This document shows, in pieces, positions 476-17,818 of a stretch of DNA of 17,818 bases. Below the pieces are notes generated by a model, which saw nothing but the letters and a program-made list of their open reading frames with translations, was not told the origin of the DNA and did not search any database. Source of the stretch: a virus (taxonomy: Duplodnaviria > Heunggongvirae > Uroviricota > Caudoviricetes); the IMG/VR virus record IMGVR_UViG_2713896903_000004; one strand, written 5' to 3'. Both the position numbers and the translations under genes were made by a program. Every line of letters starts with the position of its first letter. The stretch's first letter is position 1.

Positions 476-478
476 AAA

Positions 479-805: not shown

Positions 806-940
806 TTGTAGTTATCTCTCACCTCGCTGATACAGCAGGTGCAAATTGAGGAAACATCATGTACCGCAAATCAGAAGCGGAAACGTCAAAGAAGCCGAGC
901 CAATGGATAACTGCGGGATAGACTAGGCCCAACGAATCCC

Positions 941-980
941 CAGGCCCAGAAACGACAAAACCCGCTCGACGGCGGGTTTA
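941..980 (-). terminator. Rho-independent terminator for minus-strand transcripts (tR'-like, upstream of holin)
   Basis: 8-bp stem aaacccgc / gcgggttt (958-965 and 972-979) with loop tcgacg. On the minus strand it is followed by the U-rich run uuuugucguuu. Confidence 0.6.
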
Positions 981-1024
981 AGCTGTGTGGCGAAGTAACC
1001 ACTCTTAACACAATACAATACTTT

Positions 1025-1053
1025 TTGCGTACGCGTTAGTGTTTTGATAGAAT
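1025..1053 (+). promoter_or_regulatory. Candidate sigma70 promoter for the AT-rich operon (TTGCGT-17-TAGAAT)
   Basis: -35-like TTGCGT at 1025-1030 and -10-like TAGAAT at 1048-1053 with a 17-nt spacer, about 45 nt upstream of the ATG at 1097. SD-like GGGGA at 1086-1090. Motif match only. Confidence 0.3.
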
Positions 1054-1096
1054 TTTCAGCCACATAAAAATCCATTCTTATAATTGGGGATATATA

Positions 1097-2272: not shown

Positions 2273-2274
2273 TA

Positions 2275-3489: not shown

Positions 3490-3825
3490 CATTGCTAAAC
3501 AGCCGTCAACAAACCCCATTGCAGTTTGCAGTTCCTTCCTAATTGTGCCATCAGAGCATTTTCTCTTCTTCGCAATAGTGCGTAATGAGATACCGATAAC
3601 AAAGTGGGCGATGATGAGCTCATATTCCTCTGGTTTATACCTTCTCAACCGAGCCACACAACTGTCTATCATGATGCCTTCATCATCATCGCACTGGAGA
3701 CGTGACTTTTTACCGTGTGGTAGAAGCCCCTTGAAACCAGCCGCTATCGGCTGCCAGTCGACACCACTATTTTCTGCTGCAGCCCAAGCCCCCCAACGAT
3801 CTAAAACTTCGTACATATCACGCAT
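3469..3825 (-). CDS. Late-gene antiterminator Q (small QuuD-type Q family)
   Basis: 118-aa ORF MRDMYEVLDRWGAWAA...IAAGFKGL...CSDGTIRKELQ matches my memory of the DLP12 QuuD-type Q family. GGAGG about 10 nt upstream of the ATG. Positioned between replication genes and the lysis cassette. Confidence 0.75.
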   Translation of the reverse strand: MRDMYEVLDRWGAWAAAENSGVDWQPIAAGFKGLLPHGKKSRLQCDDDEGIMIDSCVARLRRYKPEEYELIIAHFVIGISLRTIAKKRKCSDGTIRKELQTAMGFVDGCLAMLAYSMA

Positions 3826-4082
3826 CAGCGCAGTACCTCCTGCACCAGTTTTTCAAACTTTCCAACTTTGGTTTCCAGCTCTGCCACACAATCAACGAGC
3901 TCATCCACCGCTTTTTGTGCGCGATGTTTCGCCTGCATCAGTTCCCTGAGCGCTGGCACCATATCCCGACGAATGGCATCTTTTGTTACACCTGTTTTTT
4001 CCAGTTGTTCCGCCTGTCGCAACATTTCCTGTGCCTGTTTACGTAGTTGTTCAGGGGTAAAAGTCATTGTCTGGTTGTTCAA
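3825..4082 (-). CDS. Hypothetical coiled-coil protein (nin-region position)
   Basis: 85-aa ORF rich in E/K/R/Q heptad-like sequence. TTG start overlaps the DnaB stop (TTGA) with GGAG upstream; an alternative ATG lies at 4067. Its stop overlaps the Q start by 1 nt. Confidence 0.55.
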   Translation of the reverse strand: MNNQTMTFTPEQLRKQAQEMLRQAEQLEKTGVTKDAIRRDMVPALRELMQAKHRAQKAVDELVDCVAELETKVGKFEKLVQEVLR

Positions 4083-5470
4083 AAGAAACGCTCCATCTTA
4101 CTGCTGTCAGTTCGTTTGTTGCTGTATCTGCGCGGCTGGGGCTGCTGCATTGGGGTGGAAAGAATCTGTGCGCTTTCCTGATCCACAGGCAGAAAATGTC
4201 CGTTATAAAAACGCCGGTAAATCGTCCCCAGAGAACCGTTACGTTGTTTCGTGATATTGATTTCTGCTATGCCCCGGGCCTGCGTATCCGGGTTGTACAC
4301 TTCATCCCTGTAAAGCATCAGAATGATGTCTGCATCCGCCTCTATTTCTCCGGAATTTTTCAGGTCTGAGTTCATGGGGCGTTTATTGGGTCTGGACTCC
4401 ACACCACGGGAGAGCTGGCTCAGCGCAATTAAGGGAAAACCACCGGATTTTGCCAGGCCTTTAAGCCCCTTTGAGATTTCACCCACGGCAAGGTCATGAC
4501 GCCCCGTGGTTCGGGTTTTTATCAGCCCGAGATAATCAACCACCACCAGCGCCGTTTCCGGATATTTAATCAGGTGGTGTTTCGTTGTTGCGCATATCTC
4601 GTCAATGGTCAGGTTCGCCTGGTCCACCATCCAGATATTGCGCCCGGTCATCCGCCCCACCCCTTGTGAGAAACGCGCCCAGTCTTCGTCTTCAAAGTGA
4701 GCGACAGATTTCAGACGTGATACCGGCATTCCTCCAGCCGCAGATACCATGCGCTCACCAATCTGGATGTTCGCCATTTCCATTGTGAACAGAAGAACAC
4801 CATGCCCCTGCTCAGTCACCTTGTCGATGATATCCAGCGCCAGTTCAGTTTTGCCCATTGACGGACGAGCCGCAATAAATACCAGGTCGCCGGGCTCCAT
4901 GCCGCCTGTTTTTGCGTCCAGTTCATCAATACCGGTCATCAACGTCCTGGATTTCTCCAGCCCCTGATTCCGGCATTCAACACGCTCAACCACTTCCGGA
5001 AGCACATCATCAATATGTACCGGCTGAATAACGCCCTTTTCCGTCGACAATGAGGCCATCATGTTCTGCGCATCCTTCAGGGCATCTTCAGCTGCTTCAC
5101 AGGTATGCGCATCACGTAATTTCTGCAACGCCTCATTCAGTGTTTTTTCTGCATCACGCAATGCGGCATTGCGACGCAACGCTGCAACATAGTGCTCCAG
5201 TGAAGACTTCACCCAGGTTTTACGCCCGGTATCAGTAATCACCGGAGCAAGTTCCGGCATCTCATTGCACAGCAGCACAGGATCAATCACACCTGAAACA
5301 CGAGCCTGTCTGCAGATGCCTGTGTAGATATCCCGATACGCTCGTACAGAAAAAACGTCCGCCGGTAGTGTGGCCAGAATATCCATCACTTCATGATCTG
5401 CCCCTCGCAGAAAAAACGCGCCAATGACAGCGCCTTCCAGGTCATCGTTACGCCAGACAGGAGAAGTCAT
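4079..5470 (-). CDS. Replicative DNA helicase, DnaB family
   Basis: 463-aa ORF with Walker A ARPSMGKT and typical DnaB C-terminal RecA-like motifs (LVVVDYLGLI, ALSQLSR). ATGA overlap with the upstream loader gene. Confidence 0.9.
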   Translation of the reverse strand: MTSPVWRNDDLEGAVIGAFFLRGADHEVMDILATLPADVFSVRAYRDIYTGICRQARVSGVIDPVLLCNEMPELAPVITDTGRKTWVKSSLEHYVAALRRNAALRDAEKTLNEALQKLRDAHTCEAAEDALKDAQNMMASLSTEKGVIQPVHIDDVLPEVVERVECRNQGLEKSRTLMTGIDELDAKTGGMEPGDLVFIAARPSMGKTELALDIIDKVTEQGHGVLLFTMEMANIQIGERMVSAAGGMPVSRLKSVAHFEDEDWARFSQGVGRMTGRNIWMVDQANLTIDEICATTKHHLIKYPETALVVVDYLGLIKTRTTGRHDLAVGEISKGLKGLAKSGGFPLIALSQLSRGVESRPNKRPMNSDLKNSGEIEADADIILMLYRDEVYNPDTQARGIAEINITKQRNGSLGTIYRRFYNGHFLPVDQESAQILSTPMQQPQPRRYSNKRTDSSKMERFF

Positions 5471-6345
5471 GCTGCCATACCTCTGATACGAGAACGATAG
5501 CTGGGCCAGTTAAACGACAACCAGTTGCGTCCCCCGTCTGTGATCCTGTCGGCAATGCGGGGGCTGATGAATGCCCACAACTCTTCCGGTGAAAGGTTGC
5601 TGATCAGGATGGTGGGCAGGATGCTTTCGTACCGGGCATTGATAATTTCCTGCAAAATAGCCATTTCAGCCGCGCTGCCAAACTGAACACCAACTTCGTC
5701 GATGATCAGCAAATCCATTGACGCATAATGCTCAATAACTTCATCCGCTGTTTTTTCGCTGTCATTCCGCCAGCAGTTTTTCACAGCACGGGTAAGGCGC
5801 ATCACGTCGGTGATCTCCACACTGGCCAGATAGTTACGGATGATGTGTTTTGCCATTGATACCGCCAGATGATTTTTCCCGGTTCCGCAACTACCAGTCA
5901 TAACAAGACTGGTACCGTTCTCCAGCATATCTGGCCAGTTCTCCGCATAGCGGCGACAGGCCGCAAGATTTCTGGCTGCGTCAGGATTAACCTCCAGATA
6001 ATTATCAAACTCGCAGTCCCGAAAACGCAGGGCAATTCCGGCGTTATCAGTCAGCTCTTCCGCCTTGAGGGACGACAGCTCCATGGTCAAATCGTTGGCC
6101 TCAGCGATCAAGCAGTCAGGGCAGCATGAAATTTTTTCTCTGTCCTCGCCATTACGATCGCTCCACACCAGTATATGCGTACTGTATTTACCGTGTTTTT
6201 CGCAATATCCGCGGCCTTCACGCATCAGGCAGGAACGATAAGGCCATGGCTTTTCGCCCTTCTGAGCAAATGCAATCTCTGCCCGTAACTCATCCATTCG
6301 CGCCTGTAGTCTTTTTTGTTGTTCACGCAGGTTAAACGTCATCAT
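5467..6345 (-). CDS. DnaC-like helicase loader (IstB-type AAA+ ATPase) with N-terminal Cys cluster
   Basis: Walker A GSCGTGKNHL and Walker B LLIIDEVG. N-terminal CEKHG...CCPDC. I prefer the ATG at 6345 (SD GAGGTGA 5 nt upstream) over the track's GTG at 6354. Confidence 0.85.
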   Translation of the reverse strand: MMTFNLREQQKRLQARMDELRAEIAFAQKGEKPWPYRSCLMREGRGYCEKHGKYSTHILVWSDRNGEDREKISCCPDCLIAEANDLTMELSSLKAEELTDNAGIALRFRDCEFDNYLEVNPDAARNLAACRRYAENWPDMLENGTSLVMTGSCGTGKNHLAVSMAKHIIRNYLASVEITDVMRLTRAVKNCWRNDSEKTADEVIEHYASMDLLIIDEVGVQFGSAAEMAILQEIINARYESILPTILISNLSPEELWAFISPRIADRITDGGRNWLSFNWPSYRSRIRGMAA

Positions 6346-6355
6346 CGCTGTCACC

Positions 6356-7180
6356 TCAGAATGTCAGTTTGTCACTGGATTTACCGAATTTGTCAGACAT
6401 GGCTCCCAGGCCAGCCAGGACATCGACCTGTCGCTGTCGCCCACCTCCGGGAGCGGCTGGCTGTTGCCAGAATTCTTCGAAGTGACGATCGGGTCCAAAG
6501 AACGTCGCAGCCTGCTTCACGAACTGTGTGCCGGTATTTCCTGTAGCACGTACCCAGGCGGCATACCGCTTCACGCCATCAAGCATGGTCTCCGGTTTTA
6601 TTCCCTCCCTGAGACGGGCTTTCCAGGCTTTGAAGGCTGCCGACTTGGAATTGCCACCAGCACGTTTGGGATATTCCTGCCAGGCCTGTTCAAATTCCGG
6701 TGAATATTCCTGTCGGGCAGAGCGCGCTGGTGCAGACGCGTCAGCGGGTGCGCCAATTGTTGGTTCATTGACTGGTTCTTTGACTGGTTCAAAAGAGTGA
6801 CTGGTTCTGGGTGAATCTCCTGCACTACCCCCTGGTGCAACTCCTGCACCACCTGGTGAATTTGCTGCACTAGGTAGTGAATTATTTGCACTACCACCTG
6901 GTGAATCTTTTGCACCATCAAGACGAAGAAGATAAATATTGCTCGAGTTCCCTTTTTCACCTTTCCGGGAAACTTTTTTTACCAGTCCCGATTCACAAAG
7001 AGCCGTAATATGATTCATCACAGAACGTTTGCTAATCTCGCACTGATCAGCAATATGCTGATAGCTGGGCCAGCACTCGCCCTGATCGCTGGCATTATCA
7101 GCCAGCTTAATCAGAACCAGTTTTCGCAACGGATTTCCCACGCGAATTTTCATCGCTTTCACCATCAGCTCCATGCTCAT
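6356..7180 (-). CDS. Replication initiator (O-like; N-terminal winged-helix, repetitive linker, C-terminal domain)
   Basis: 274-aa ORF. N-terminal HTH-like region (SYQHIADQCEISKRSVMNHITALCESGLV). A low-complexity Gly/Ser/Pro/Ala linker is encoded by the iteron DNA. GGAGG upstream. Precedes the DnaC/DnaB-like genes as in lambdoid replication modules. Confidence 0.7.
   Translation of the reverse strand: MSMELMVKAMKIRVGNPLRKLVLIKLADNASDQGECWPSYQHIADQCEISKRSVMNHITALCESGLVKKVSRKGEKGNSSNIYLLRLDGAKDSPGGSANNSLPSAANSPGGAGVAPGGSAGDSPRTSHSFEPVKEPVNEPTIGAPADASAPARSARQEYSPEFEQAWQEYPKRAGGNSKSAAFKAWKARLREGIKPETMLDGVKRYAAWVRATGNTGTQFVKQAATFFGPDRHFEEFWQQPAAPGGGRQRQVDVLAGLGAMSDKFGKSSDKLTF
6761..6916. repeat. 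Iteron array inside the initiator gene (putative origin of replication)
   Basis: Three copies of TGACTGGTTC (6769-6778, 6781-6790, 6799-6808), then about five tandem ~21-bp units of the form GGTGAAT-N-TGCAC-N-CCT (6810-6916). A more AT-rich stretch follows at ~6920-6990. Confidence 0.55.
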
Positions 7181-7401
7181 AACACACCTCCCAGGCGTTT
7201 AAACATTTTTCCGGACTGAAACACCACCAGTGGGTAACTGATGGTGTAGTTACGCCCCAGTAATTCACACACGACTTTCTGGCTTTCGGTGCTGACCAGG
7301 CAAACCCGCAGAACGTGACCGTTGCTGGTGGCGAACCACTGCCCCACACGGGGGCAACGGTTGTATCGGTGATACAGGGAATTAACGACGCGGCGAATCA
7401 T
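7177..7401 (-). CDS. Hypothetical small protein (74 aa, Cys-containing) immediately upstream of the initiator gene
   Basis: ATG at 7401 with strong SD GGGAGGTG 7 nt upstream. ATGA overlaps with both the upstream 220-aa gene stop and the initiator start. The track's longer 79-aa version lacks an RBS. Confidence 0.5.
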   Translation of the reverse strand: MIRRVVNSLYHRYNRCPRVGQWFATSNGHVLRVCLVSTESQKVVCELLGRNYTISYPLVVFQSGKMFKRLGGVL

Positions 7402-8060
7402 GGGCGCACCTCCCATTGATTACGGCGGAAAGCGGTGTGACTGAGACTGGTTTCAGTTTCATGGAATGCTTCAATGCAGCTCTCGTAGTACCGCATTGTG
7501 CGCAGACTTAACCCAAGCTGAAGCATCATCAGGCCATCAAGGGTGATGTAATAACCACGCAGGGAGTCACCATAGATGTGATAAGTACCCGGTATGAAAT
7601 TGCGGGTAAAAAATTCGCGCGAGCAGTTCAGATACTCGATTTTGTCGACGATGTTCTGGTGCATGCGCTTGAAATGGCAGGCAACATGCAGGGAGAAAAT
7701 AACGGCCTTGCCGTTGACGACTTCGATTTTCAGGTATGGGGAAGTTGGGACAGTAGCCATGATGGCAGCCTCCTTGATCGGTGAAATACTTCCACCACCG
7801 GAAACGCCAATTTCGCTGGTGGTGAACTGAACGGGGTTGGCGTAACCGGTGATCAAGGAAACCGGCGCATCTTTCGATGCCCCCGCCCAGCCCACCATAA
7901 CTTTGATGTGAGCAAATGCGGACGATAAAAAAGACGCTGGCGCGTCATATATCGCCTTGATCAATTCCAGGACGCCAATCCCGGCACCCGCTTTATAAGG
8001 TGCAGAGACAGTGTAACGTCCCGAAATTGCAGAATCAATATTTAGGATTGAAACATTCAT
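7398..8060 (-). CDS. Hypothetical protein (220 aa) occupying the cII slot
   Basis: 663-nt ORF in ~50% GC DNA, co-oriented and coupled with the downstream early genes. No recognisable HTH or catalytic motif. Weak RBS at the annotated ATG. Confidence 0.6.
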   Translation of the reverse strand: MNVSILNIDSAISGRYTVSAPYKAGAGIGVLELIKAIYDAPASFLSSAFAHIKVMVGWAGASKDAPVSLITGYANPVQFTTSEIGVSGGGSISPIKEAAIMATVPTSPYLKIEVVNGKAVIFSLHVACHFKRMHQNIVDKIEYLNCSREFFTRNFIPGTYHIYGDSLRGYYITLDGLMMLQLGLSLRTMRYYESCIEAFHETETSLSHTAFRRNQWEVRP

Positions 8061-8137
8061 ATGCTTACTGGTATTTTTGTTAACGTTCTTGGATTCTTGG
8101 GCCTGCTTTATGCAGTTGCCTGTATCAACGTTGAGCG

Positions 8138-8163
8138 AGCCGGGTCACTACCCGGCTTTTTTT
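8138..8163 (+). terminator. Intrinsic terminator oriented for + strand transcripts (antisense to the early-right operon)
   Basis: 8-bp stem agccgggt / acccggct with loop cact, followed by tttttt (8158-8163) on the + strand. On the minus strand the hairpin is followed by cgcucaacg, with no U tract. Overlaps the Rha stop codon. Confidence 0.55.
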
Positions 8164-8870
8164 CACCGGTGCCAGCCAATAACCTGAAATAACCCCATTT
8201 TCGGGTGATACCAGCGAGTCCCTCGCTGTTCTGCTTCCTCCATAACCCGATAAAAAGCAGCCATAAACGGTTCCACAGCAACAATTGCGCGACGTGACAA
8301 CAATCCGTCCGGCGTCATGAACTCATGGGTGTCTGTAGGAATTTGATAGGCGTTCACCAGATTGCGGCATTTATCATCTGACAAACCGGTTTTTGCTTTC
8401 AGTTGGCGATATCCGGCATAGCCCTCACGAATGTTGCCCTTTTTGATTTGCTCAACTGTTTCGGCAACGTGGCTGACTTTTTCTTCCACCTGAGTGATCC
8501 GTTTCTGCTGACGAACAGCTTCAAGAGCCATCGCGGCAACCATTTCGATTTCGCTCATTGGCTTACGGATCTGTTCTTCCAGTTCGCGCCAGCGATCTAC
8601 CAGGCGGGCTGTGAATTCGGGACAAAGCTGTGCGACGACAATGATGCTGTCGCGCTTACCTTGTTCGCCTTCGAAGATGTAAGCACCTACATTTCGTTTT
8701 AATCCTAAGTTGTTGATTATTTCGAAATTCGCCATTGGCGCACTTCGAATAATCCCCTTATCCATGAGCCTTTCAATGCTGCGCTTAACATCTTTGTGTT
8801 GGCTGCCCACCAACTCTGCGATTTCAAGGCTGGTCATGGATGCTTTGCCGTTAAAAATTGCGGTGTTCAT
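8163..8870 (-). CDS. Rha-family phage regulatory protein / antirepressor-like
   Basis: 235-aa ORF. N-terminus MNTAIFNGKASMTSLEIAELVGSQHKDVKRSIERL is typical of the phage Rha domain as I remember it. GGAG 8 nt upstream. ATGA overlap with the cro-like stop. Confidence 0.7.
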   Translation of the reverse strand: MNTAIFNGKASMTSLEIAELVGSQHKDVKRSIERLMDKGIIRSAPMANFEIINNLGLKRNVGAYIFEGEQGKRDSIIVVAQLCPEFTARLVDRWRELEEQIRKPMSEIEMVAAMALEAVRQQKRITQVEEKVSHVAETVEQIKKGNIREGYAGYRQLKAKTGLSDDKCRNLVNAYQIPTDTHEFMTPDGLLSRRAIVAVEPFMAAFYRVMEEAEQRGTRWYHPKMGLFQVIGWHR

Positions 8871-9130
8871 TGTTGGTCTCCTGTGGGCTTGTCATCTTCT
8901 GTGTGCGCTAAGCTTGGATGTGGAAAAAGCTCTGGTAGGTCTGGACGAAATTCATACGCTTGGATCTTTCCGTCGACAGCTGCAACCAATAACGGCACAA
9001 ATTCTGGTGAAATCTTGTTCTTGCAGTTCAACCAATCGCAGACTGTTGACTGGGCCTTTCCGCATCGCTTGGCTAAGGCTTGCTGACTTCCAAGAATCTC
9101 AATAGCTTTCTCTATGGCTTTATGTTTCAT
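8867..9130 (-). CDS. Cro/YdaS-like HTH regulator
   Basis: 87-aa product from the ATG at 9130 (SD GGAG 9 nt upstream). HTH-like LGSQQALAKRCGKAQSTVCDWLN. Divergent from the repressor gene across a ~120-bp operator region. The track's longer 104-aa version has no RBS. Confidence 0.65.
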   Translation of the reverse strand: MKHKAIEKAIEILGSQQALAKRCGKAQSTVCDWLNCKNKISPEFVPLLVAAVDGKIQAYEFRPDLPELFPHPSLAHTEDDKPTGDQQ

Positions 9131-9152
9131 AATCGCATCTCCTATTGAACGC

Positions 9153-9181
9153 ATAATAACAACAGGAAAAGCGATATTCAA
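9153..9181 (-). promoter_or_regulatory. PR-like early-right promoter (TTGAAT-17-TATTAT) driving the cro-like gene
   Basis: On the minus strand, -35 TTGAAT (9181..9176) and -10 TATTAT (9158..9153) with a 17-nt spacer, ~20 nt upstream of the cro-like SD. Confidence 0.5.
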
Positions 9182-9197
9182 CGTTAAACCTAGAATA

Positions 9198-9217
9198 TTT
9201 ATCGGAAAGCCGATAAA
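9198..9217. promoter_or_regulatory. Operator-like perfect palindrome TTTATCGG-N4-CCGATAAA between the cro-like and cI-like genes
   Basis: 8-bp inverted arms with a 4-bp spacer, just downstream of a TAGAAT -10-like element (9191-9196) oriented toward cI. Related CGATAAACCGAT / ATCGGTAAACC motifs recur at the PL-like promoter. Confidence 0.5.
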
Positions 9218-9249
9218 CTAGCCAAGATAGAGAGGGGAGGAAAATCGCA

Positions 9250-9942
9250 ATGACATTTTCAGAACGACTTGATTTAGCTATGCGCAACGCAAAATTTACG
9301 CAAGGTAGGCTGGCCAAAGAAGTGGGTATGGCTCAGTCCAGTGTTAATCAACTACTTAACAAAGCCAACGGTTCCAGAAAAACAGTCGAAATAGCAAAAG
9401 TTTTGGGCGTTAACCCGGAATGGCTCGCATCGGGTGTTGGTCCAATGGAAATCGTGACCTCTGCAGACTCACACCAAATACGTAACATTTCTGAAGATTG
9501 GGTTACTGATTCGTATGTCGTGGATGTTTTAGACATCAGATATAGTTGCGGACCTGGTAGTTATAACTCTGATTTTCCTGACATTGTCAGATCTATAGCG
9601 ATAGAACCAGGATACGCATCAAGAGTTTTTGGCGGCAGACCAGCATCAGCAATCAAAGCAATAAACGCCCACGGCGACAGTATGAAAGGCACAATAGACC
9701 CTGAAGACTTGGTATTTGTAGATGTATCAGTTCGCACATTTAATGGTGATGGTATATACGCCTTTACATACTCTGGAACATCGCACATCAAAAGACTTCA
9801 AAAAATCAAAGATACTCTAACGGTGATATCTGACAACCCAGCTTACAAGGATTGGGCTATCGAACCGGAAGACTTCGAACAACTTCACATTGACGGAAAA
9901 GTAATTGTCAGTTGGCCTATGACACTACACCGTTTTGCATAA
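9250..9942 (+). CDS. CI-like prophage repressor (N-terminal HTH, C-terminal LexA/S24 autopeptidase domain)
   Basis: 230-aa ORF with GGAGG upstream. HTH-like QGRLAKEVGMAQSSVNQLLN. C-terminal S24-like motifs GDSM (Ser) and a downstream KRL (Lys). Confidence 0.85.
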   Translation: MTFSERLDLAMRNAKFTQGRLAKEVGMAQSSVNQLLNKANGSRKTVEIAKVLGVNPEWLASGVGPMEIVTSADSHQIRNISEDWVTDSYVVDVLDIRYSCGPGSYNSDFPDIVRSIAIEPGYASRVFGGRPASAIKAINAHGDSMKGTIDPEDLVFVDVSVRTFNGDGIYAFTYSGTSHIKRLQKIKDTLTVISDNPAYKDWAIEPEDFEQLHIDGKVIVSWPMTLHRFA

Positions 9943-9956
9943 GCAAAAATCATTTA

Positions 9957-9986
9957 ACCCGCCCACTCTTAAGTGGGCTTTTTTTT
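9957..9986 (+). terminator. Rho-independent terminator downstream of the repressor gene
   Basis: Stem gcccact / agtgggc (9961-9967 and 9972-9978) with loop ctta, followed by T8 (9979-9986). Confidence 0.7.
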
Positions 9987-9994
9987 GGAAAAAA

Positions 9995-10036
9995 ATCGAT
10001 AAACCGATTGACAGGTGAAATCGGTAAACCTATTAT
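9995..10036 (+). promoter_or_regulatory. PL-like early-left promoter (TTGACA-17-TATTAT) with overlapping operator-like repeats
   Basis: Consensus -35 TTGACA at 10008-10013, a 17-nt spacer and -10 TATTAT at 10031-10036. ATCGATAAACCGAT overlaps the -35 and ATCGGTAAACC lies in the spacer. Confidence 0.55.
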
Positions 10037-10085
10037 CTTGACATAGGTATCGAACTCACCAAAGCAATTATAGAGGATGAGAAAA

Positions 10086-10583
10086 ATGTCATCGTATATG
10101 GGATTACCAACAAATCAGCACGATGCTCTTGAGAATATTCAGCTCTTAGTAGGGGCTGGTGCACTACTGTATAGCAGCAATAACCCTGAGTTAATTGAAC
10201 TTGCCAGCTCCATCCTGGCTGTAACTCAAAAATATAGCCTCACCGCGTCACGTTTATGCAAACAAAATTTAGCTATTAATTCCCAGAATCGGATTCGCAC
10301 CCAACGCGAAGCCTGCGGCTTAACAACCGCCGAACTCGCCAGGCTGCTCGAACTCGATGAAGAAATCATCATCCAGTGGGAGAGTGGAGAGTATGAACCA
10401 ACCATCAGTATGCTTATCCCACTGGCTAATGTTCTTGGCTGCGATCCGATGTGGCTGTTAACTGGCGAGGTTACTCCTCCGGAGCAACCAAAAAGTGAGG
10501 AGCAGCAACACCATGACGCATCTCAACAAGTTTGCTCCTTATCTCGCGAAGCTCTTCTACGGAAGAACCAATACCAATGGTGA
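10086..10583 (+). CDS. XRE-family HTH protein (first gene of the early-left operon)
   Basis: 165 aa from the ATG at 10086 (SD GAGGA 8 nt upstream); the track's start at 10077 abuts the SD. HTH-like segment CGLTTAELARLLELDEEIIIQWESGEYEPTISMLIPLANVLGCDPMWLLTG. Confidence 0.6.
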   Translation: MSSYMGLPTNQHDALENIQLLVGAGALLYSSNNPELIELASSILAVTQKYSLTASRLCKQNLAINSQNRIRTQREACGLTTAELARLLELDEEIIIQWESGEYEPTISMLIPLANVLGCDPMWLLTGEVTPPEQPKSEEQQHHDASQQVCSLSREALLRKNQYQW

Positions 10584-10711
10584 CATAATCGCCGCTTCGC
10601 CCCTCAAGGTACATGCGAACATTTTTATCAATCATTGCGGAAACAGTCTCAATATGAAAACACTTCTGAGACTCGCTATATAGCAGAACATATAAGTCAG
10701 CTGAGGAAGCC

Positions 10712-11077
10712 ATGAAAAAGTTCGAAAACATAACTGTTCTCCATGTTGATGACTTTGATTATACAAACCCGAAACTTCTCCCGAAGGTTGTAAAGGCAAT
10801 AGATGTTGCCGATATAGTGATTAGAGGAAAGAGAATTGTCAAAAACAGGCTCGCATGCACTTCAGGAGCAATGACAGAAACAACCTCACAACAAGATGAT
10901 TATGAAGGCATTTGTCTGGAGCCTGATTCATTTGCGGTAAATGTTTATCATTTATTGCATGCAACACAGGTATTACATATGTCAAGTAATCACGAAACAA
11001 AAACACTTGGCAGCGAAATTCTGAATTTTGCATGTGAATATGCAAAAGCTGCTGCCGAAAAAGAATTAGCGCAATAA
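10712..11077 (+). CDS. Hypothetical protein (121 aa)
   Basis: ORF with SD GAGGA 4 nt upstream of the ATG. Moderately AT-rich. No recognisable domain. Confidence 0.6.
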   Translation: MKKFENITVLHVDDFDYTNPKLLPKVVKAIDVADIVIRGKRIVKNRLACTSGAMTETTSQQDDYEGICLEPDSFAVNVYHLLHATQVLHMSSNHETKTLGSEILNFACEYAKAAAEKELAQ

Positions 11078-11155
11078 CAATAAATATTCCCTGAATGTTT
11101 ATTACGGTTTTATCGCCGGAGATTGTTGCAACCTTTATTCGCAGGAGATTATGTT

Positions 11156-11269
11156 ATGACTTTCCTGAAACATAAGGCATCGTATAAAACTGCCTGCCTC
11201 ATTGCACAACATGGAGATTCTTATCTTCATATAGCCAACCTGTATTTGCGCAAAGCATATGGGAGATAA
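11156..11269 (+). CDS. Small hypothetical protein (37 aa)
   Basis: Below the ORF-track size cut-off. ATG preceded by AGGAG at an 8-nt spacing. Ends 4 nt before the next start. Confidence 0.25.
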   Translation: MTFLKHKASYKTACLIAQHGDSYLHIANLYLRKAYGR

Positions 11270-11273
11270 GTCA

Positions 11274-11462
11274 ATGGAAGAAAAACAACAAAACATAACA
11301 CATAAAAAAGTAAGAGTGTTGCTAACCATTGAAAATGGTGAAGTAATTTACTCAAAACATCTGTTGGATAGTGAATTCGTTGGCTGCATGGATACATTTC
11401 TGTGGATGGCAAAAAGAGCTGGCTACACGATTATTCCACCAGCAAAGGAGCAAACATTATGA
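11274..11462 (+). CDS. Hypothetical small protein (62 aa)
   Basis: ATG at 11274 with SD GGGAG 8 nt upstream. Its stop overlaps the start of the next gene (ATGA). Confidence 0.45.
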   Translation: MEEKQQNITHKKVRVLLTIENGEVIYSKHLLDSEFVGCMDTFLWMAKRAGYTIIPPAKEQTL

Positions 11463-12040
11463 ATCATTCAGAGTTCCGACCAGAAGTTACTCCACATGGC
11501 ATAAAAATTGGCAATACAACCATTGATTATGTTGAAGCTGTGCGGCGTCTTAATGATGGTGAATACGATTATCCAAATTCACGCGGTTTAAGAATCCTTC
11601 AGTGCCTTGCCGAAGCTGATGATGCCGGATTGCTGGGGAAATTTTCCATCGATATGAAGGTTGCACAATGGCGCTGGCTGTATGTAACGATATTTATAAA
11701 CGAAGAGGAATATAAGAACGGCACCATTGATATCTCGAACGAAAACGGAACTACAGGTCGCGCAGTTATTTATAAAGGGAAATATGGTTGTATGGGTATC
11801 TACCCGGGACCAATTCGCATTGCCCTGCAAAACCATGTCGAATGGGGATTTATTGAAAAATATGGTGAAGATGAAGGTATGGGGCGAGTTCTGTTTCTCT
11901 ATCAAAAAATGCTCATCGCAGATCCTGATAATGGTTTCATTGTTTCTGCTATGGGACGCGAAGGGCTTGAACTCCTTCTGGATGAAATGATTAACGACCT
12001 GAATACTCATGGTATGCCAGAAGCGCCAGTGACACATTAA
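11459..12040 (+). CDS. Hypothetical protein (193 aa)
   Basis: ATG at 11459 with SD AAGGAG 8 nt upstream, translationally coupled to the preceding small ORF. No recognisable domain. Confidence 0.65.
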   Translation: MNHSEFRPEVTPHGIKIGNTTIDYVEAVRRLNDGEYDYPNSRGLRILQCLAEADDAGLLGKFSIDMKVAQWRWLYVTIFINEEEYKNGTIDISNENGTTGRAVIYKGKYGCMGIYPGPIRIALQNHVEWGFIEKYGEDEGMGRVLFLYQKMLIADPDNGFIVSAMGREGLELLLDEMINDLNTHGMPEAPVTH

Positions 12041-12086
12041 ATATTAAGAAGAAAATAATTCTTCCAGTTTTTTACTAACCGTTTAT

Positions 12087-12194
12087 ATGAAAAGCAACCG
12101 TGAATTAAACAGAGTAAAACTGATTTTAATCCTTGCCACAGTGGTGACACTAACTGAAATTATTATTCTCTTTATTGCGCTGTCAGTCGGTTAA
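12087..12194 (+). CDS. Possible small hydrophobic peptide (35 aa)
   Basis: MKSNRELNRVKLILILATVVTLTEIIILFIALSVG forms a single predicted TM helix. No clear SD, so speculative. Confidence 0.2.
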   Translation: MKSNRELNRVKLILILATVVTLTEIIILFIALSVG

Positions 12195-12217
12195 AAATAT
12201 CGGGATACCACAGACCA

Positions 12218-12406
12218 ATGAGACTGTATTTCACAATAGTAATTTTACTGGCAATTATCGCATGCATTTACGGATTACTCGTTCCGTTCCTTATATCCAT
12301 GAAGGATACGATAGCAGTTATTTCTGGCTTTGCACTGGCGTTTCTGACCCCGCCCTGCATTTATGCCATTTACAAGGGTCTTTCTTTCACTAAGGATAAA
12401 AGATGA
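12218..12406 (+). CDS. Small membrane protein (62 aa, two hydrophobic helices)
   Basis: Hydrophobic stretches FTIVILLAIIACIYGLLVPFLI and VISGFALAFLTPPCIYAIY. Its stop overlaps the SPFH gene start (ATGA). Confidence 0.5.
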   Translation: MRLYFTIVILLAIIACIYGLLVPFLISMKDTIAVISGFALAFLTPPCIYAIYKGLSFTKDKR

Positions 12407-13230
12407 AAAAAATTATTTTTGCTTTAGCCATTGTTCTGCCGACTATTGGCCTCGTCGGTTGCGATCGCGTTGAACCAGGTAATGTTGGCATCAAGGTAAA
12501 TAAACTGGGCGACGACAAAGGCGTCGGTGAGGTGGTCGGTGTTGGTCGCTACTGGACAGGCTGGAACACTGAAGTTTATATCTTCCCGACCTTTAAGCAG
12601 ATGAAGACCTACGATGATCCATTCAGTTTCCAGATGAGCGATGGAACAACCATTGGTTACCACATCGGAGTAGCCTACAAGGTTGATCCATCCAAAGTTA
12701 CCACGGTGTTTCAAACCTACCGCAAAGGTGTGGATGACATTACCGACACCGACCTGCGCCAGAAGATAGCAGATGCACTAAATCGGCTGGCCAGCAAAAT
12801 GACCACCGACAAATTTATCGACGGCGGCAAGTCTGAGCTGCTGGATGCAGCTCTAAAAGATATTCAGGCAGAAATGACGCCCATCGGTATTCAGGTAATG
12901 AGCCTGTCTTATGTAGGTAAACCGGAGTACCCGCCAACCGTTATCGACAGCATTAACGCCAAAGTCACGGCAAACCAGAAAACCCTGCAACGCGAGCAGG
13001 AAGTAAAACAGCGCGAAGCGGAAGCCAACATGTTGCGTGCGGAGGCTGCCGGACAGGCAGATGCAATTCGCACAAAAGCTCAGGCCGAAGCCGATGCTAT
13101 TCGTTTACGCGGTGAAGCTCTGCGCCAGAACCCCGGTGTTATGGAGCTGGAAGCCATCAATAAATGGAACGGCACACTGCCGCAATACATGACCAGCGGT
13201 GCCAATACACCATTTATCCAGGTTAAATAA
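12403..13230 (+). CDS. SPFH/band-7 (prohibitin/HflC-like) domain lipoprotein
   Basis: Signal peptide with lipobox LVGC (MKKIIFALAIVLPTIGLVGC). SPFH-like core and an Ala/Glu/Arg/Gln-rich coiled-coil tail (QREAEANMLRAEAAGQADAIRTKAQAEADAIRLRGEALRQ). SD AAGGA upstream. Confidence 0.75.
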   Translation: MKKIIFALAIVLPTIGLVGCDRVEPGNVGIKVNKLGDDKGVGEVVGVGRYWTGWNTEVYIFPTFKQMKTYDDPFSFQMSDGTTIGYHIGVAYKVDPSKVTTVFQTYRKGVDDITDTDLRQKIADALNRLASKMTTDKFIDGGKSELLDAALKDIQAEMTPIGIQVMSLSYVGKPEYPPTVIDSINAKVTANQKTLQREQEVKQREAEANMLRAEAAGQADAIRTKAQAEADAIRLRGEALRQNPGVMELEAINKWNGTLPQYMTSGANTPFIQVK

Positions 13231-13237
13231 CTTATAT

Positions 13238-13256
13238 GCCCGGCAGGCCGCCGGGC
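13238..13256 (+). other. GC-rich hairpin after the SPFH gene (no U tract; weak terminator or RNA-stability element)
   Basis: Stem gcccggc / gccgggc with loop aggcc, followed by taagggaaaag. Confidence 0.3.
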
Positions 13257-13270
13257 TAAGGGAAAAGCAG

Positions 13271-13630
13271 ATGAACACCCATAATGCCCAACCGCAAATA
13301 ATGAACTATGACCCGAATCTGACGTCATGCGGACGCATGGCAAAACAAACCGTTCGATTAACTTTCGGGTTATGGGAATACCGCGAAACATTCGAAGTCA
13401 CTGTCGGTGGCAACCTGACCGGACTCGATGTTATCAGTTGCGCTATTGAAAGCCTGTACGCAACGCTGCCTTATGAAGAAGTCGAGGATGAGCGCGATAT
13501 CATCGCCACCATTAATATCGGCGGCGTGAAATGCAAGGATGAAAACTTGATCGGAGAACTCTGGCTTGCCGGGATGCTTATCTCTGCAGAAATTATCAGT
13601 ATTGAACCCGCTACAAACATACCGCTCTGA
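13271..13630 (+). CDS. Hypothetical protein (119 aa)
   Basis: ATG at 13271, in frame with the longer track ORF 13199-13630. AAGGG-like SD upstream. Confidence 0.55.
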   Translation: MNTHNAQPQIMNYDPNLTSCGRMAKQTVRLTFGLWEYRETFEVTVGGNLTGLDVISCAIESLYATLPYEEVEDERDIIATINIGGVKCKDENLIGELWLAGMLISAEIISIEPATNIPL

Positions 13631-13661
13631 AGTTCTCACAACTCAGGGAACAGGAGAAAAA

Positions 13662-13904
13662 ATGTTCGCTTTGATTAATCAAGGGCAACTGTATACCGAC
13701 AGTGCCGGTTACCCGGTAAAAATTATTCGCTGCATAAATAACATCGTGTTGTACAGAAGAATGGATGGGCGAACACAGTCGGTAAAAATAAACGATTTTA
13801 ATGAACTGTTTGAACGGATCGCTCACCAGGAATACCGACAAATTCTGGCAGAAACAGAGCAGGAAGCTCATCTGAAAAAATTACGAGCCATGAAAAGGAA
13901 GTAA
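13662..13904 (+). CDS. Hypothetical protein (80 aa)
   Basis: ATG at 13662 with SD AGGAG upstream, in frame with track ORF 13566-13904. Confidence 0.5.
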   Translation: MFALINQGQLYTDSAGYPVKIIRCINNIVLYRRMDGRTQSVKINDFNELFERIAHQEYRQILAETEQEAHLKKLRAMKRK

Positions 13905-13907
13905 AGA

Positions 13908-14054
13908 ATGAATAAAGCATTTGAACGATGGGTCCACCAGCGTTACGGCAATCGCTATGACCTGACACGAGATGTCGACGGTTTCTACTGTCGTGAAATT
14001 GTGAAACGAATGTTTGAAGTGTGGTGCCACTGCCGCGGACTGAGTGTTGTGTGA
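13908..14054 (+). CDS. Small hypothetical Cys/His-containing protein (48 aa)
   Basis: ATG at 13908 with SD AGGAAG upstream. Contains FYCREIVKRMFEVWCHCRG. Below the track size cut-off. Confidence 0.3.
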   Translation: MNKAFERWVHQRYGNRYDLTRDVDGFYCREIVKRMFEVWCHCRGLSVV

Positions 14055-14061
14055 GGGAAAT

Positions 14062-14298
14062 ATGGGGAATGTGATTCAACTGGCTCCCAATGAATGGGTG
14101 TGTGAAAGCGTTCTTATCGCGATTACCGGACTCAAACCAGGCACAATTCTTCGGGCCCGGAAAGAATGCTGGATGGTTGGAAAAGAGTATATTCACGTAT
14201 CACCAGACGGTAATCCAAAGCCTTCCAGCGAGTGTATGTATAACAGAAAAGCAATAGATGCTTGGGTCGCTTCAATGAAAAACAAACAACCTGGGTGA
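14062..14298 (+). CDS. xis: Excisionase-like protein (Xis)
   Basis: 78 aa from the ATG at 14062 (SD GAGGG). The segment ITGLKPGTILRARKECWMVGKEYIHVSPDGNPKPSSECMYN matches my memory of the lambdoid-prophage excisionase family. Lies immediately upstream of int. Confidence 0.6.
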   Translation: MGNVIQLAPNEWVCESVLIAITGLKPGTILRARKECWMVGKEYIHVSPDGNPKPSSECMYNRKAIDAWVASMKNKQPG

Positions 14299-14353
14299 TT
14301 TAATGCCATGAAGTATGTAATCTCGTATCGCTCTTGGGCGTCTGGAGGTATCA

Positions 14354-15667
14354 ATGGATAAAGTCAAATATCCAACAGGCGTCGAAAACCACGGCGGCAC
14401 ATTACGCATCTGGTTTAATTTTAAAGGTAAACGTGTCAGGGAAAATCTTGGTGTCCCTGACACTGCCAAGAACAGGAAGATCGCCGGGGAACTACGGACA
14501 TCGGTATGTTTTGCCATCCGCACAGGAAGCTTTGATTATGCTGCACAGTTCCCTGACTCCCCTAACCTTCAGGCTTTTGGGGTAAGTAAAAAAGAAATTA
14601 CGGTGAAAGAACTTGAAGAAAAATGGCTGGATCTGAAACGAATGGAAATCTCTGCAAATGCATTCAATCGCTATGAATCCGTTGCAAGAACGATGGTTCC
14701 GAAAATTGGAGGCAGCAGACTGGTGTCATCGGTAACTAAAGAGGAATTGCTGTATATCAGGAAAGATTTGCTGACCGGGTATCAGAATTCAACGAAAAAC
14801 AAAGCAGCAGCAAAAGGACGGAGCGTCGTTACTGTAAATTATTACATGACGACAATCGCTGGAATGTTTCAGTTTGCTGCAGATCACGGTTACTTAGAAG
14901 CAAATCCCTTCCAGGGAATTAAGCCTCTTAAAAGAGCCAGGGCAGAGCCAGATCCGCTAACTCGTGACGAATTTATTCGCCTGATAGATGCTTGCCGACA
15001 TCAGCAGACGAAAAACCTGTGGTCATTGGCTGTGTACACAGGAATGCGTCACGGTGAACTGGTCTCCCTGGCCTGGGAAGATATCGATCTGAAAGCAGGA
15101 ACTATTACTATCAGGCGCAATTATACGAAACTCGGTGAGTTCACTCTACCTAAAACTGAAGCAAGTACAAACAGGGTTGTGCATCTTATCCAGCCCGCTA
15201 TCAGTGTCCTGAAAAATCAGGCTGAAATGACAAGACTGGGTAAGCAGCACCACATCAAGGTTCAACTACGTGAATATGGGCGTTCAGTGAATCATGAATG
15301 TACTTTCGTATTTAACCCCCAGGTGGTTAGAAAAAGCAAACAGGTCGGTTTTATCTACAAGGTAGATTCTATTGGCGACTCATGGGAAACAGCCATTAAG
15401 CGTGCGGGCATCAGGCACCGGAAAGCATACCAGTCACGACACACTTATGCGTGCTGGTCGTTATCTGCCGGAGCAAATCCAAGCTTCATTGCCAGCCAGA
15501 TGGGCCATGCAAGTGCCCAGATGGTGTTCAATGTATACGGAGCATGGATGACTGACAGTAATGCAGAACAGATCGCAATGCTGAATCAGAAGCTGGCAGA
15601 TTATGTCCCAATGATGCCCCATAGTCACCAAAATGGCACAAAAGGCTTATTAAAATCAGTAAGTTAA
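14354..15667 (+). CDS. int: Tyrosine integrase (lambda/Rac-type with N-terminal arm-binding domain)
   Basis: 437-aa ORF with SD GGAGG 5 nt upstream. Catalytic-domain motifs TGMRHGEL, SRHTYACW and the tyrosine region NVYGAWM. Adjacent to the host junction. Confidence 0.9.
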   Translation: MDKVKYPTGVENHGGTLRIWFNFKGKRVRENLGVPDTAKNRKIAGELRTSVCFAIRTGSFDYAAQFPDSPNLQAFGVSKKEITVKELEEKWLDLKRMEISANAFNRYESVARTMVPKIGGSRLVSSVTKEELLYIRKDLLTGYQNSTKNKAAAKGRSVVTVNYYMTTIAGMFQFAADHGYLEANPFQGIKPLKRARAEPDPLTRDEFIRLIDACRHQQTKNLWSLAVYTGMRHGELVSLAWEDIDLKAGTITIRRNYTKLGEFTLPKTEASTNRVVHLIQPAISVLKNQAEMTRLGKQHHIKVQLREYGRSVNHECTFVFNPQVVRKSKQVGFIYKVDSIGDSWETAIKRAGIRHRKAYQSRHTYACWSLSAGANPSFIASQMGHASAQMVFNVYGAWMTDSNAEQIAMLNQKLADYVPMMPHSHQNGTKGLLKSVS

Positions 15668-15675
15668 TCCTTAAT

Positions 15676-16095
15676 ACCCGTCATGTTAACTGCGTAGAGG
15701 GCAACACTACTCTGTATGCACTGCCGAAAGCGGAAGTTGTGCTGCGCTGGCGTGAGCAAACCAGCGACGATTTCCGTTTTTGTTTTAAGTTCCCGGCAAC
15801 TATTTCGCATCAGGCTGCATTACGTCATTGCGACGATTTAGTGACAGAGTTTTTCACCCGTATGTCGCCGCTGGCACCACGCATTGGGCAATTCTGGCTG
15901 CAATTACCCGCTACCTTCGGTCCACGGGATCTGCCTGCGCTTTGGCATTTTCTCGATACTCTACCTGGCGAGTTTACCTACGGTGTGGAAGTTCGCCATC
16001 CGCTATTTTTTGCCAAAGGGGAAGAAGAACAAACGCTTAATCGCGGCTTGCATCAACGTGGCGTTAATAGGGTAATACTAATCAGACACGTTTAA
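15676..16095 (+). pseudogene. yecE: Start-less internal fragment of a host DUF72-family gene (yecE-like), bounded by two integrated elements
   Basis: The reading frame is open from directly after the int stop, with no ATG or RBS. The product (…NCVEGNTTLYALPKAEVVLRWREQTSDDFRFCFKFPATISH…) resembles my recollection of E. coli YecE. A stop follows shortly after the sequence changes character near 16075. Confidence 0.5.
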
Positions 16096-16150
16096 ATACA
16101 CCATCCAAAGCGATACAATCACACTATTAGTTTTTTATGGTGTATAAACT

Positions 16151-17674
16151 ATGAAACGTGCAATCAGTTACATCCGATTCAGTTCTGAGAAGCAATCCCG
16201 AGGTGATTCACTACGCCGACAATCGAAGTTGGTCACTGACTGGCTTAAAGCTCGTCCTGAGTATCATCTAGATGAATCTCTTACCTTCCGTGATTTGGGG
16301 AAAAGTGCTTTTAGCGGTAAGCACTTGAAAGGTGGCTTAGGCGACTTCTTAACCGCTATTGAGAAAGGGCTTGTAAGAGCTGGTGATACGCTCTTGATAG
16401 AGTCTCTTGACCGTCTGTCACGGCAAGATGTAGACCGAGCAAGTGAACTACTCAGAAACATCCTTCGCTCTGGTGTCGATGTGGTCACATTATCCGATAA
16501 TGAACACTACACAAAGGAATCTCTTAAAGACCCGTTAGCCTTGATTAAGTCAATCCTGATTATGCAACGAGCGCATGAGGAAAGTTTGAGGAAGTCTGAG
16601 CGTATACAGGCTGCATGGGATGCAAAGAAAGAAGCCGCTAAAGCTGGTATCAAGATTTCTAAGCGTTGCCCTGCATGGCTTAAGCTTAATAATGACCGTA
16701 AAAGTTTCTCTGTAATCCCTGAGAAGGTAGCGACGGTAAAGCGATGCTTCCAGCTACGGTTAGAGGGTAAGTCTATCTTGGAAATTGTCAGAACTCTTAA
16801 TAGTGAGGGACATCAGACGCTTAACCAGTACAAAGCGGGTAAATTTAGTCAGACTTCTGTGCAAGACCTTTTGAAGAATCGCTCTGTAATTGGTTATTTC
16901 ACCCCCAAAGGCTGTGAAGAAATTTCAAACTATTACCCCTCTATCATCCCTGAGACTGATTTCTACAAAGTCCAGCAACTATCATATCCTCGTTACGGTA
17001 GAAAACCTGCTTCAGATAAACCATTGAGTGTGAATCTTTTCAAGGGTGTTATCCGTTGTTCTGAATGTGGTCATGCTCTGATTATCACAGGCTTTAGCGA
17101 TACAAGGAACGGGATATATCGCTGCCCTCTTCGTAATGAAAACCGTTGCAGTGCTAAGGGTCTGTCACGTAAGCAAACTGATGGAACATTACTTGCTTTG
17201 CTCTCTCGTCTTGACCGATTTGAGAATGGTACAACGAATGCCATTGATACACTGAAGCTACACCGTGAACACATTTCAAACAATATTGAGAAGCTGGTAC
17301 AACTCTCACTTGAAGTCGAAGACCTGACCGCTATTACCAGCAAGTTAAAACAGTTAAAGGGGGAGTTATCACAGGTTGATGCTGATATTGAGAAGGAGGC
17401 ACAACGCCTTAAATCTATTGACGTGGGTTGTTTGTCTGATTGTGACTTGAGTACAAAGGCGGGAAGGATTGAAGCACAACTGATTATTCGTAGTGCTGTT
17501 AAAGAAGTTGTTTTAAACACTGCTAAACGTCGCTGTAGAGTAACTTTTCACAATGGCAAGGTGATTGACCTGTCGATAACAGAAAACCCCGCTCAGGACA
17601 TTACAGAGGCTGAAAAGTCGCTTACTGAAATTGCTGAGAAGGGTCTGTTAGATGTTGACGCCTTCCAACTGTAG
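16151..17674 (+). CDS. Large serine recombinase (resolvase-type catalytic domain, recombinase domain, zinc ribbon, coiled coil)
   Basis: 507-aa ORF. N-terminal ISYIRFSSEKQ...SLRRQ with the catalytic Ser in RFSS. Cys cluster CSECGH...CPLRNENRC. C-terminal coiled-coil region. Confidence 0.85.
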   Translation: MKRAISYIRFSSEKQSRGDSLRRQSKLVTDWLKARPEYHLDESLTFRDLGKSAFSGKHLKGGLGDFLTAIEKGLVRAGDTLLIESLDRLSRQDVDRASELLRNILRSGVDVVTLSDNEHYTKESLKDPLALIKSILIMQRAHEESLRKSERIQAAWDAKKEAAKAGIKISKRCPAWLKLNNDRKSFSVIPEKVATVKRCFQLRLEGKSILEIVRTLNSEGHQTLNQYKAGKFSQTSVQDLLKNRSVIGYFTPKGCEEISNYYPSIIPETDFYKVQQLSYPRYGRKPASDKPLSVNLFKGVIRCSECGHALIITGFSDTRNGIYRCPLRNENRCSAKGLSRKQTDGTLLALLSRLDRFENGTTNAIDTLKLHREHISNNIEKLVQLSLEVEDLTAITSKLKQLKGELSQVDADIEKEAQRLKSIDVGCLSDCDLSTKAGRIEAQLIIRSAVKEVVLNTAKRRCRVTFHNGKVIDLSITENPAQDITEAEKSLTEIAEKGLLDVDAFQL

Positions 17675-17681
17675 ATAAGTC

Positions 17682-17710
17682 AGGGGCTTCATGGCCCCTT
17701 CCTTCTTTAG
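17682..17710 (+). terminator. Putative intrinsic terminator after the serine recombinase gene
   Basis: Stem aggggc / gcccct with loop ttcatg, followed by T-rich tccttcttt. The U tract is interrupted. Confidence 0.35.
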
Positions 17711-17818
17711 TAAGTACCACGCTTATTAGGGTTGACAGAGTATTTCCGCAGAGCATTACCTGCCTTGAGTACCTTTTCAGCACCTGAATTAGCTGAGTCT
17801 GAGAAGGTGCTTTGACCA

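Follow-up and report, generated by a model that had tools for sequence, protein, structure and literature searches.

An internal fragment of yecE lies between a phiP27-like prophage and a serine-recombinase element in an Escherichia contig

The DNA analyzed here (hereafter the window) is IMG/VR virus record IMGVR_UViG_2713896903_000004, which comprises the entire 17,818-nucleotide (nt) draft contig BBVN01000044.1 of assembly GCA_001514745.1. It contains an internal fragment of the host gene yecE (15686..16079, + strand; nt 86–479 of 819, residues ~29–160 of 272), a pseudogene remnant enclosed by the recombinase genes of two mobile elements. To the left lies a tyrosine integrase gene (int) of the yecE-targeting class (14354..15667, +; 437 amino acids; Pfam Arm-DNA-bind_2, E-value 9.6e-24; Phage_integrase, 2.5e-18), and to the right a gene for a large serine recombinase (16151..17674, +; 507 amino acids; Resolvase, 1e-17; Recombinase, 3.9e-15; Zn_ribbon_recom, 3.6e-7). 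An initial annotation made from the sequence had described a host gene fragment between two different integrases and had proposed two independent insertions; the former is confirmed here, and we assign a probability of about 95% to the latter, i.e., that the middle of yecE was isolated by two independent site-specific insertions at two points of the gene.

The fragment was compared with an uninterrupted yecE from its own Escherichia lineage. A contig carrying only the serine-recombinase element (L005) served to predict the empty site, which was then sought in metagenome contigs and found in L019, a 204-kb contig with an uninterrupted 819-nt yecE in the order aspS-yecD-yecE-yecN-cmoA. Positions 15686..16079 were identical to nt 86–479 of this gene (394/394), and outside them, on both sides, the window diverged completely from it, so that the breakpoints map to nt 86 and nt 479 (window 15686 and 16079). 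Homology to yecE thus stops 4 nt beyond the initially assigned end at 16075 and outside the recombinase gene, rather than running on into it. Against K-12 yecE the fragment showed 84.9% identity, a value in the range of E. coli yecE generally (84–85%), with homology from nt 86 to ~479, and its product aligned with residues 27–160 of the 272 residues of K-12 YecE. The resemblance to DUF72/YecE proteins that had first been noticed was confirmed by a match to Pfam DUF72 (PF01904; 118.5 bits against a cut-off of 25.3; E-value 5.7e-34). This match was partial, covering profile positions 14–138 of 217 only, and both the domain and the gene are incomplete. The identity to an intact copy located between yecD and yecN identified the fragment as orthologous to chromosomal yecE.

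The fragment begins with the attachment (att) core of a phiP27-type prophage. In the phiP27 record an 11-bp att sequence, TTAACTGCGTG, is annotated at both phage ends. Window positions 15686..15696 (+), the int-proximal copy of the prophage core and equivalent to yecE nt 86–96, read TTAACTGCGTA, a sequence with a single occurrence in the window and with the host allele as its final A; the flank from ~15674 showed imperfect similarity to yecE. The core adjoins the tyrosine integrase gene, whose product has arm-binding and catalytic domains and which has an excisionase gene (xis) upstream. The yecE att has been given as CAYGCAGTTAA, the reverse complement of this core (Delannoy et al., PMC5592225), and a 21-bp att has been used for the Shiga toxin (Stx) phages of yecE (Nakamura et al., PMC8112680). 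In E. coli EC12 a host polymorphism of the core, TTAACTGTGTG, was found in the int-proximal copy and was absent from the distal copy, placing strand exchange within TTAACTG.

Window positions 1..15685 showed 94.3% nt identity to phiP27 (AJ298298) over 63% of that stretch, and int was 95.7% identical to phiP27 int. The prophage shares the att core, the position in yecE and the xis-int-att layout with phiP27 and with yecE-integrating Stx1 and Stx2 phages (AJ298298; PMC8112680; PMC5592225; PMC9413875). It differs from phiP27 in that its host belongs to a non-coli Escherichia lineage and in that phiP27 lacks ~37% of the windowed region; moreover, phiP27 is an Stx2e phage, whereas the prophage of the window is known here from its early region only. 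The use of yecE by Stx-type phages as an insertion site, stated in the initial annotation, is well documented (PMC9413875, PMC8112680, PMC5592225, PMC3603311).

At the right junction, attB, attL and attR of this lineage read GGGTAATACTGGACAG, GGGTAATACTAATCAG and TGATAATACTGGACAG, respectively, and have TAATACT in common, ending in CT (window 16078..16079, the central crossover dinucleotide of attL, equivalent to yecE nt 478–479). The corresponding E. coli sites (GGGTGATTTTAGACAG, GGGTGATTTTCATCAG and TGCTAATCTTAGACAG) have in common TT alone, likewise at yecE nt 478–479. The 2-bp crossover seen in these alignments, without a long direct repeat, is the pattern expected of a large serine recombinase. 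The recombinase starts with SYIRFSSEKQ, containing the resolvase-type R-x-S motif, and all three of its Pfam domains scored above their cut-offs. It was 87–89% identical in amino acid sequence to the E. coli copies, with a ratio of nonsynonymous to synonymous divergence (dN/dS) of 0.13. Its gene, which had been placed ~75 bp beyond the fragment, begins 71 nt after the yecE breakpoint and 55 nt after the stop codon of the fragment's open reading frame (ORF). The left end of the element (16080..17818) is cut off by the contig end; complete copies elsewhere measure ~11 kb. Two of these, L005 and L006, were 100% identical to window positions 16080..17674 and end in yecE nt 478–819 followed by yecN. 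Host site and element agree in the central dinucleotide, which is CT here but TT in E. coli, indicating that the inferred attP of the element has tracked the host allele. The predicted attP had no match in IMG/VR, which thus gave no sign of an excised or packaged form.

In the events that we propose, the phiP27-like prophage would have inserted by means of its tyrosine integrase at the 11-bp core TTAACTGCGT(G/A), yecE nt 86–96, setting int and attR directly before yecE nt 86 and displacing nt 1–96 by 40–50 kb to its far end. The ~11 kb element would have inserted by means of its serine recombinase, with a 2-bp crossover at yecE nt 478–479, setting attL and the recombinase gene directly after nt 479 and displacing nt 478–819 by ~11 kb. 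A distance of 382 bp separates the two target sites, and neither insertion destroys the site of the other, so that either element is predicted to be able to excise alone.

Each element was also found alone in yecE with an identical junction, in agreement with the proposed independence of the two insertions. The prophage alone occupies the gene in SY033 (L004) and in hundreds of other genomes, and the element alone in Z0117EC0032 (L002) and in contigs L005, L006 and L009 of the lineage of the window. For this lineage, double occupancy was seen in two drafts (the second being BBVO01000033.1) and in three Logan assemblies; it was further seen in 11 complete E. coli genomes and at nine IMG/VR loci; the set of doubly occupied loci comprised L001, L016, L007, L008, L010, L011 and L023–L031. 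The missing 5' and 3' parts of yecE, expected at the distal ends of the two elements, were present in order in E. coli EC12: yecD-yecE(1–96), a ~50 kb prophage, yecE(86–479), a ~12 kb element and yecE(478–819)-yecN. In E. coli SCU-387 (L014 21108..21514), the distal end of the prophage in yecE borders on potB and not on yecD. This junction indicates a large rearrangement between prophages, and EC12 was therefore used for the three-piece comparison.

These arrangements also bear on a nested origin, in which the stretch would be an attB mimic inside one mobile element that had become the target of the other. Mimics of this kind have been published: prophages carry ~100-bp yecE-derived segments, 87% identical, which serve as attB for yecE-type Stx phages, and 21-bp yecE-like attB sequences lie inside PPompW prophages (Nakamura et al., 2021, PMC8112680). 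However, the fragment is 394 bp long and 100% identical to the native allele, rather than ~100 bp at ~87% identity within prophage DNA. Furthermore, element-only contigs continue upstream into yecE nt 1–85 and yecD, and the far end of the EC12 prophage abuts yecE(1–96) and yecD. An insertion of one element into a mimic carried by the other is therefore very unlikely.

Alternatively, both halves might belong to one composite element, equipped with two recombinases, that captured a piece of yecE, e.g., by imprecise excision, and moves as a unit. In favor of such a unit, int, the yecE fragment and the recombinase gene lie contiguously in one orientation, a scan from int to the recombinase gene returned no terminator-like site, and IMG/VR prophage calls cover both elements. 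This is contradicted by the occurrence of each half alone in yecE with the same junction, by the large difference between the halves in their divergence from E. coli counterparts, by the pairing of at least three integrase classes with the element and by a co-occurrence that is not above chance. At nine IMG/VR loci (L023–L031, ~8200..9935 each), integrases with ~96%, 86% and 72% nt identity to int of the window share the same core (nt 86). The presence of several integrase classes at one core beside the element indicates that the double state arose repeatedly. At all nine loci where the recombinase was found in IMG/VR, the prophage calls extend across a doubly occupied locus, and no free element was seen there; a scan of the genome collection with the recombinase yielded two partial loci only, in Shigella flexneri and in an Escherichia sp. 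A composite element is thus highly improbable, even more so than a nested origin.

Two independent insertions, our preferred explanation, were also weighed against the co-occurrence of the elements. Among 5426 complete E. coli genomes, the int class was present in 328, the yecE-element junction in 260 and both in 11, where ~15.7 would be expected under independence; these complete E. coli genomes gave no sign of attraction or exclusion between the elements. A functional link between the prophage and the element was rejected because the co-occurrence is not above chance. Several points weigh against the preferred explanation, the first being that this estimate ignores phylogenetic non-independence as well as integrase classes too diverged for megablast. 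In addition, the distal yecE pieces would lie outside the contig of the window, which stops 144 nt past the recombinase gene. Five short-read assemblies of doubly occupied strains (BBVN, BBVO and the three DRR0171xx Logan assemblies) all end 60–145 nt past the recombinase stop codon. Their break point (window 17736..17818) falls inside the gene for a distal tail (Dit)-like protein, and element-only metagenome contigs continue through it uninterrupted. In the doubly occupied strains, the element may thus be disrupted or duplicated near the break, where a repeat, an insertion sequence or a second copy may begin. Finally, the activity of both recombinases is a prediction from their sequences.

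Given that the window is a short-read draft contig and stops shortly after the recombinase gene, two contigs ending in parts of yecE might have been misjoined during assembly. The same join recurs, however, in the 11 complete E. coli chromosomes, the second draft, the three Logan assemblies and the nine IMG/VR loci, which leaves an assembly chimera with a negligible probability.

Multiple occupancy of integration hot spots is known from tandem prophages and from prophages within prophages, and yecE is one of the genes recorded as interrupted by integrating prophages (Nakamura et al., 2021, PMC8112680; Bobay et al., 2013, PMC3603311). As in those cases, two elements occupy one host locus here. 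Unlike in tandem or nested prophages, the recombinases are unrelated, the two sites lie 382 bp apart with a genuine gene fragment between them, and neither a shared att nor an att mimic is involved. The double insertion is an ordinary result of two site-specific recombinases using different points of a hot-spot gene. It matters for annotation and typing, because a yecE scored as occupied in screens of Stx insertion sites may hold either of two unrelated elements, or both, and assays by polymerase chain reaction (PCR) or BLAST across the whole of yecE are unable to separate these states. The locus also supplies natural attB, attL and attR sites of a large serine recombinase with a central dinucleotide that differs by host species.

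The segments of the locus differ in their divergence from E. coli, and identity shifts sharply at both breakpoints. For int, nt identity to the E. coli prophage genes beside yecE was 96.6–98.6%, with a synonymous divergence (dS) of 0.05. The yecE fragment was 84–85% identical to E. coli (dS 1.0 for the 5' part of yecE), and the recombinase segment 85–86.5% (dS 0.55). The near identity of int across species indicates that the prophage is a recent cross-species arrival, whereas the divergence of the element from its E. coli copies is about that of the host locus. Within the lineage, element-only contigs and doubly occupied ones were 100% identical in the element segment. The serine-recombinase element was thus probably the first resident, and the prophage probably arrived later.

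The divergence of the host locus itself (identity to E. coli of ~95% in aspS and ~85% in yecE) would fit a non-coli Escherichia, probably Escherichia albertii. The yecD identity to K-12 was 96% in L019, beside a yecE of 86%, and ~85% in L005, as compared over L019 (reverse complement) 5311..6692 and L005 8888..9945, which suggests that a recombination tract ends where yecD meets yecE, next to the hot spot.

The remnant lies within a chimeric open frame (15625..16095, +) in which foreign DNA has replaced both ends of yecE: the first 61 nt derive from the prophage, followed by the yecE fragment, and the last 16 nt, with the TAA stop codon (16093..16095), from the element. The initial annotation described an ORF without a start codon continuing in frame directly after the integrase. 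The frame is indeed devoid of ATG, GTG and TTG from 15625 until a GTG at 15739, but it is in the −1 frame relative to int and overlaps the last 43 nt of that gene. With 28 N-terminal and 112 C-terminal residues of YecE gone, the remnant cannot encode a DUF72 protein, and the ORF is probably without function. The Prokaryotic Genome Annotation Pipeline (PGAP) starts the equivalent E. coli 'yecE' at an ATT corresponding to window position 15649. In E. coli lysogens carrying only the prophage, PGAP annotates a 256-amino-acid 'yecE' (L004 3250..4020) from an ATT inside the 3' end of int. This annotated product would be a fusion in which the first 27 residues of YecE are exchanged for 12 phage-encoded residues.

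A promoter-like site (16091..16119, +; TTTAAA-17-TACAAT) is present in the 71 nt from attL to the recombinase start and matches the consensus at 9 of 12 positions, although the number of such sites in the scan was not above chance. The E. coli copies, whose overall identity is ~85%, keep both of its hexamers. Read-through from an induced prophage into the recombinase gene would also be possible, given the gene orientation and the terminator scan.

The prophage half of the locus is already well known, and it is the nature of the second element alone that deserves more work. Full copies of ~11–12 kb were delimited in L005 (9930..20919), L002 (~20405..32278) and L016 (~14679..26748). The L005 copy encodes the recombinase, a 256-amino-acid Dit-like protein, a 687-amino-acid tape measure protein, Dam, a small invertase, a replication-initiator-like protein (PHROGs, E-value 5e-9) and five proteins of unknown function. 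Among the proteins of this copy, no match to a capsid, portal or terminase protein was obtained with Pfam, PHROGs, NCBIfam or PADLOC. Of the two kinds of element named in the initial annotation, the tyrosine-integrase phage stands, while the serine-recombinase element is an 11–12 kb unit without head or packaging genes and is no usual prophage. In the window, the Dit-like (baseplate) gene is represented by its final 36 codons and stop codon (17707..17817, −), cut by the contig end, and their translation agrees with the C-terminus of the product of L005 11557..12327(−).

In its small size, its integrative nature and its lack of a full set of virion genes, the element resembles phage satellites, but it was filed in no family of these, whether phage-inducible chromosomal islands (PICI, cfPICI), P4-like satellites or the PICI-like elements of Vibrio (PLE). 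Scans with Pfam, PHROGs, NCBIfam and PADLOC turned up no named satellite family, no direct comparison having been made with the proteins of PICI, P4 or PLE. Apart from an orphan methyltransferase and a tape-measure domain, PADLOC and NCBIfam scans of the element proteins, together with two prophage genes beyond the Q antiterminator gene, found no defence system or named family. In 50,697 phage records, nothing came closer to the recombinase than a YbcK-like protein with 35% identity.

Similarity was found instead to virulent Felix O1-like phages (Felixounavirus). The Dit-like protein showed 77% amino acid identity to the product of the gene that directly follows the tape measure gene in these phages. 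At the nt level, identity of the Dit-like gene to Felixounavirus PHB11 rose from 82.7% in this lineage through 88% in EC12 to 93.6% in SCU-387, the last measured over 535 nt. The tape measure protein was 28% identical overall to that of the phage, with 56–72% identity over the first ~50 residues and ~50% at the extreme C-terminus; its middle has diverged and is shorter, giving 687 amino acids in the element against 735 in the phage. In element and phage alike, a small ORF, the tape measure gene and the Dit-like gene follow one another in this order. A non-coding motif of ~50 nt in the element, with repeats rich in GGT as well as an inverted repeat around TATAAAAAT, was 85–100% identical to two intergenic regions of PHB11. 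By these matches, the element is linked to virulent and not to temperate phages, and it has no close relative among sequenced temperate phages. Were the element to interact with Felix O1-like phages, the prophage beside it would be merely a chance neighbor.

The copies of the element are mosaic, and dN/dS of its genes was 0.10–0.17, indicating that the genes are under purifying selection and maintained. The element occupied the same yecE position in 260 of the 5426 complete E. coli genomes (~5%). In the searchable literature, no description of the element was found, nor any link of yecE to serine-recombinase elements or of Felixounavirus to satellites. Tentatively, and with the odds against it, we suggest that the element represents an undescribed, yecE-targeting family of ~11–12 kb that interacts with virulent Felix O1-like phages. 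It might act as a PLE-like satellite, excising and riding in Felixounavirus virions; it might also be a mobile island for defence, with its own tape measure and baseplate-hub proteins poisoning or re-tooling the assembly of phage tails.

Like the Vibrio PLE, the element is small and integrative, has a large serine recombinase and lacks capsid and terminase genes. In both, moreover, sequence similarity points to a virulent myovirus and not to a temperate phage, and the copy of this lineage has a replication-initiator-like gene. The tape measure and Dit-like tail genes of the element are not known from PLE, and its putative partners are Escherichia and Felix O1-like phages instead of Vibrio and ICP1. 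The resemblance to PLE is a lead and not a classification. If the element did parasitize or block Felix O1-like phages, no such element would have been known before for this group, which is widely used in biocontrol of Salmonella and E. coli, and it would be the second serine-recombinase island aimed at a virulent myovirus, after the Vibrio PLE.

The rest of the window (1..15685) is the integrase-proximal ~15.7 kb of the phiP27-like prophage, a lambdoid early region truncated at the left contig end. Pfam domains identified genes for a Q antiterminator (3469..3825, −), a DnaB-like helicase (4079..5470, −), a DnaC-like protein (5467..6354, −), a CI-like repressor (9250..9942, +) and an SPFH protein (12403..13230, +). 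The excisionase-like gene directly 5' of int (14062..14298, +; DUF1233) matched PF06806 in L007, which is the same contig, and its E. coli counterpart carries the annotation 'excisionase family protein'. Insertion into a tRNA or tmRNA gene was considered and rejected, as no such gene is present within the window. Beyond Q, on the side where an Stx phage would have its stx genes, the window spans ~3.5 kb, and the late region lies off the contig. This part contains instead a gene pair, 1097..2272(+) and 2275..3489(+), convergent with the Q gene. The first product (391 amino acids) has an NA37 nucleoid-associated domain (E-value 5.5e-24), and the second (404 amino acids) had no Pfam or PADLOC match. 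The same slot holds genes for a DUF262 protein and a HEPN-like nuclease in E. coli SCU-387, and the position beside Q may be a moron or defence slot.

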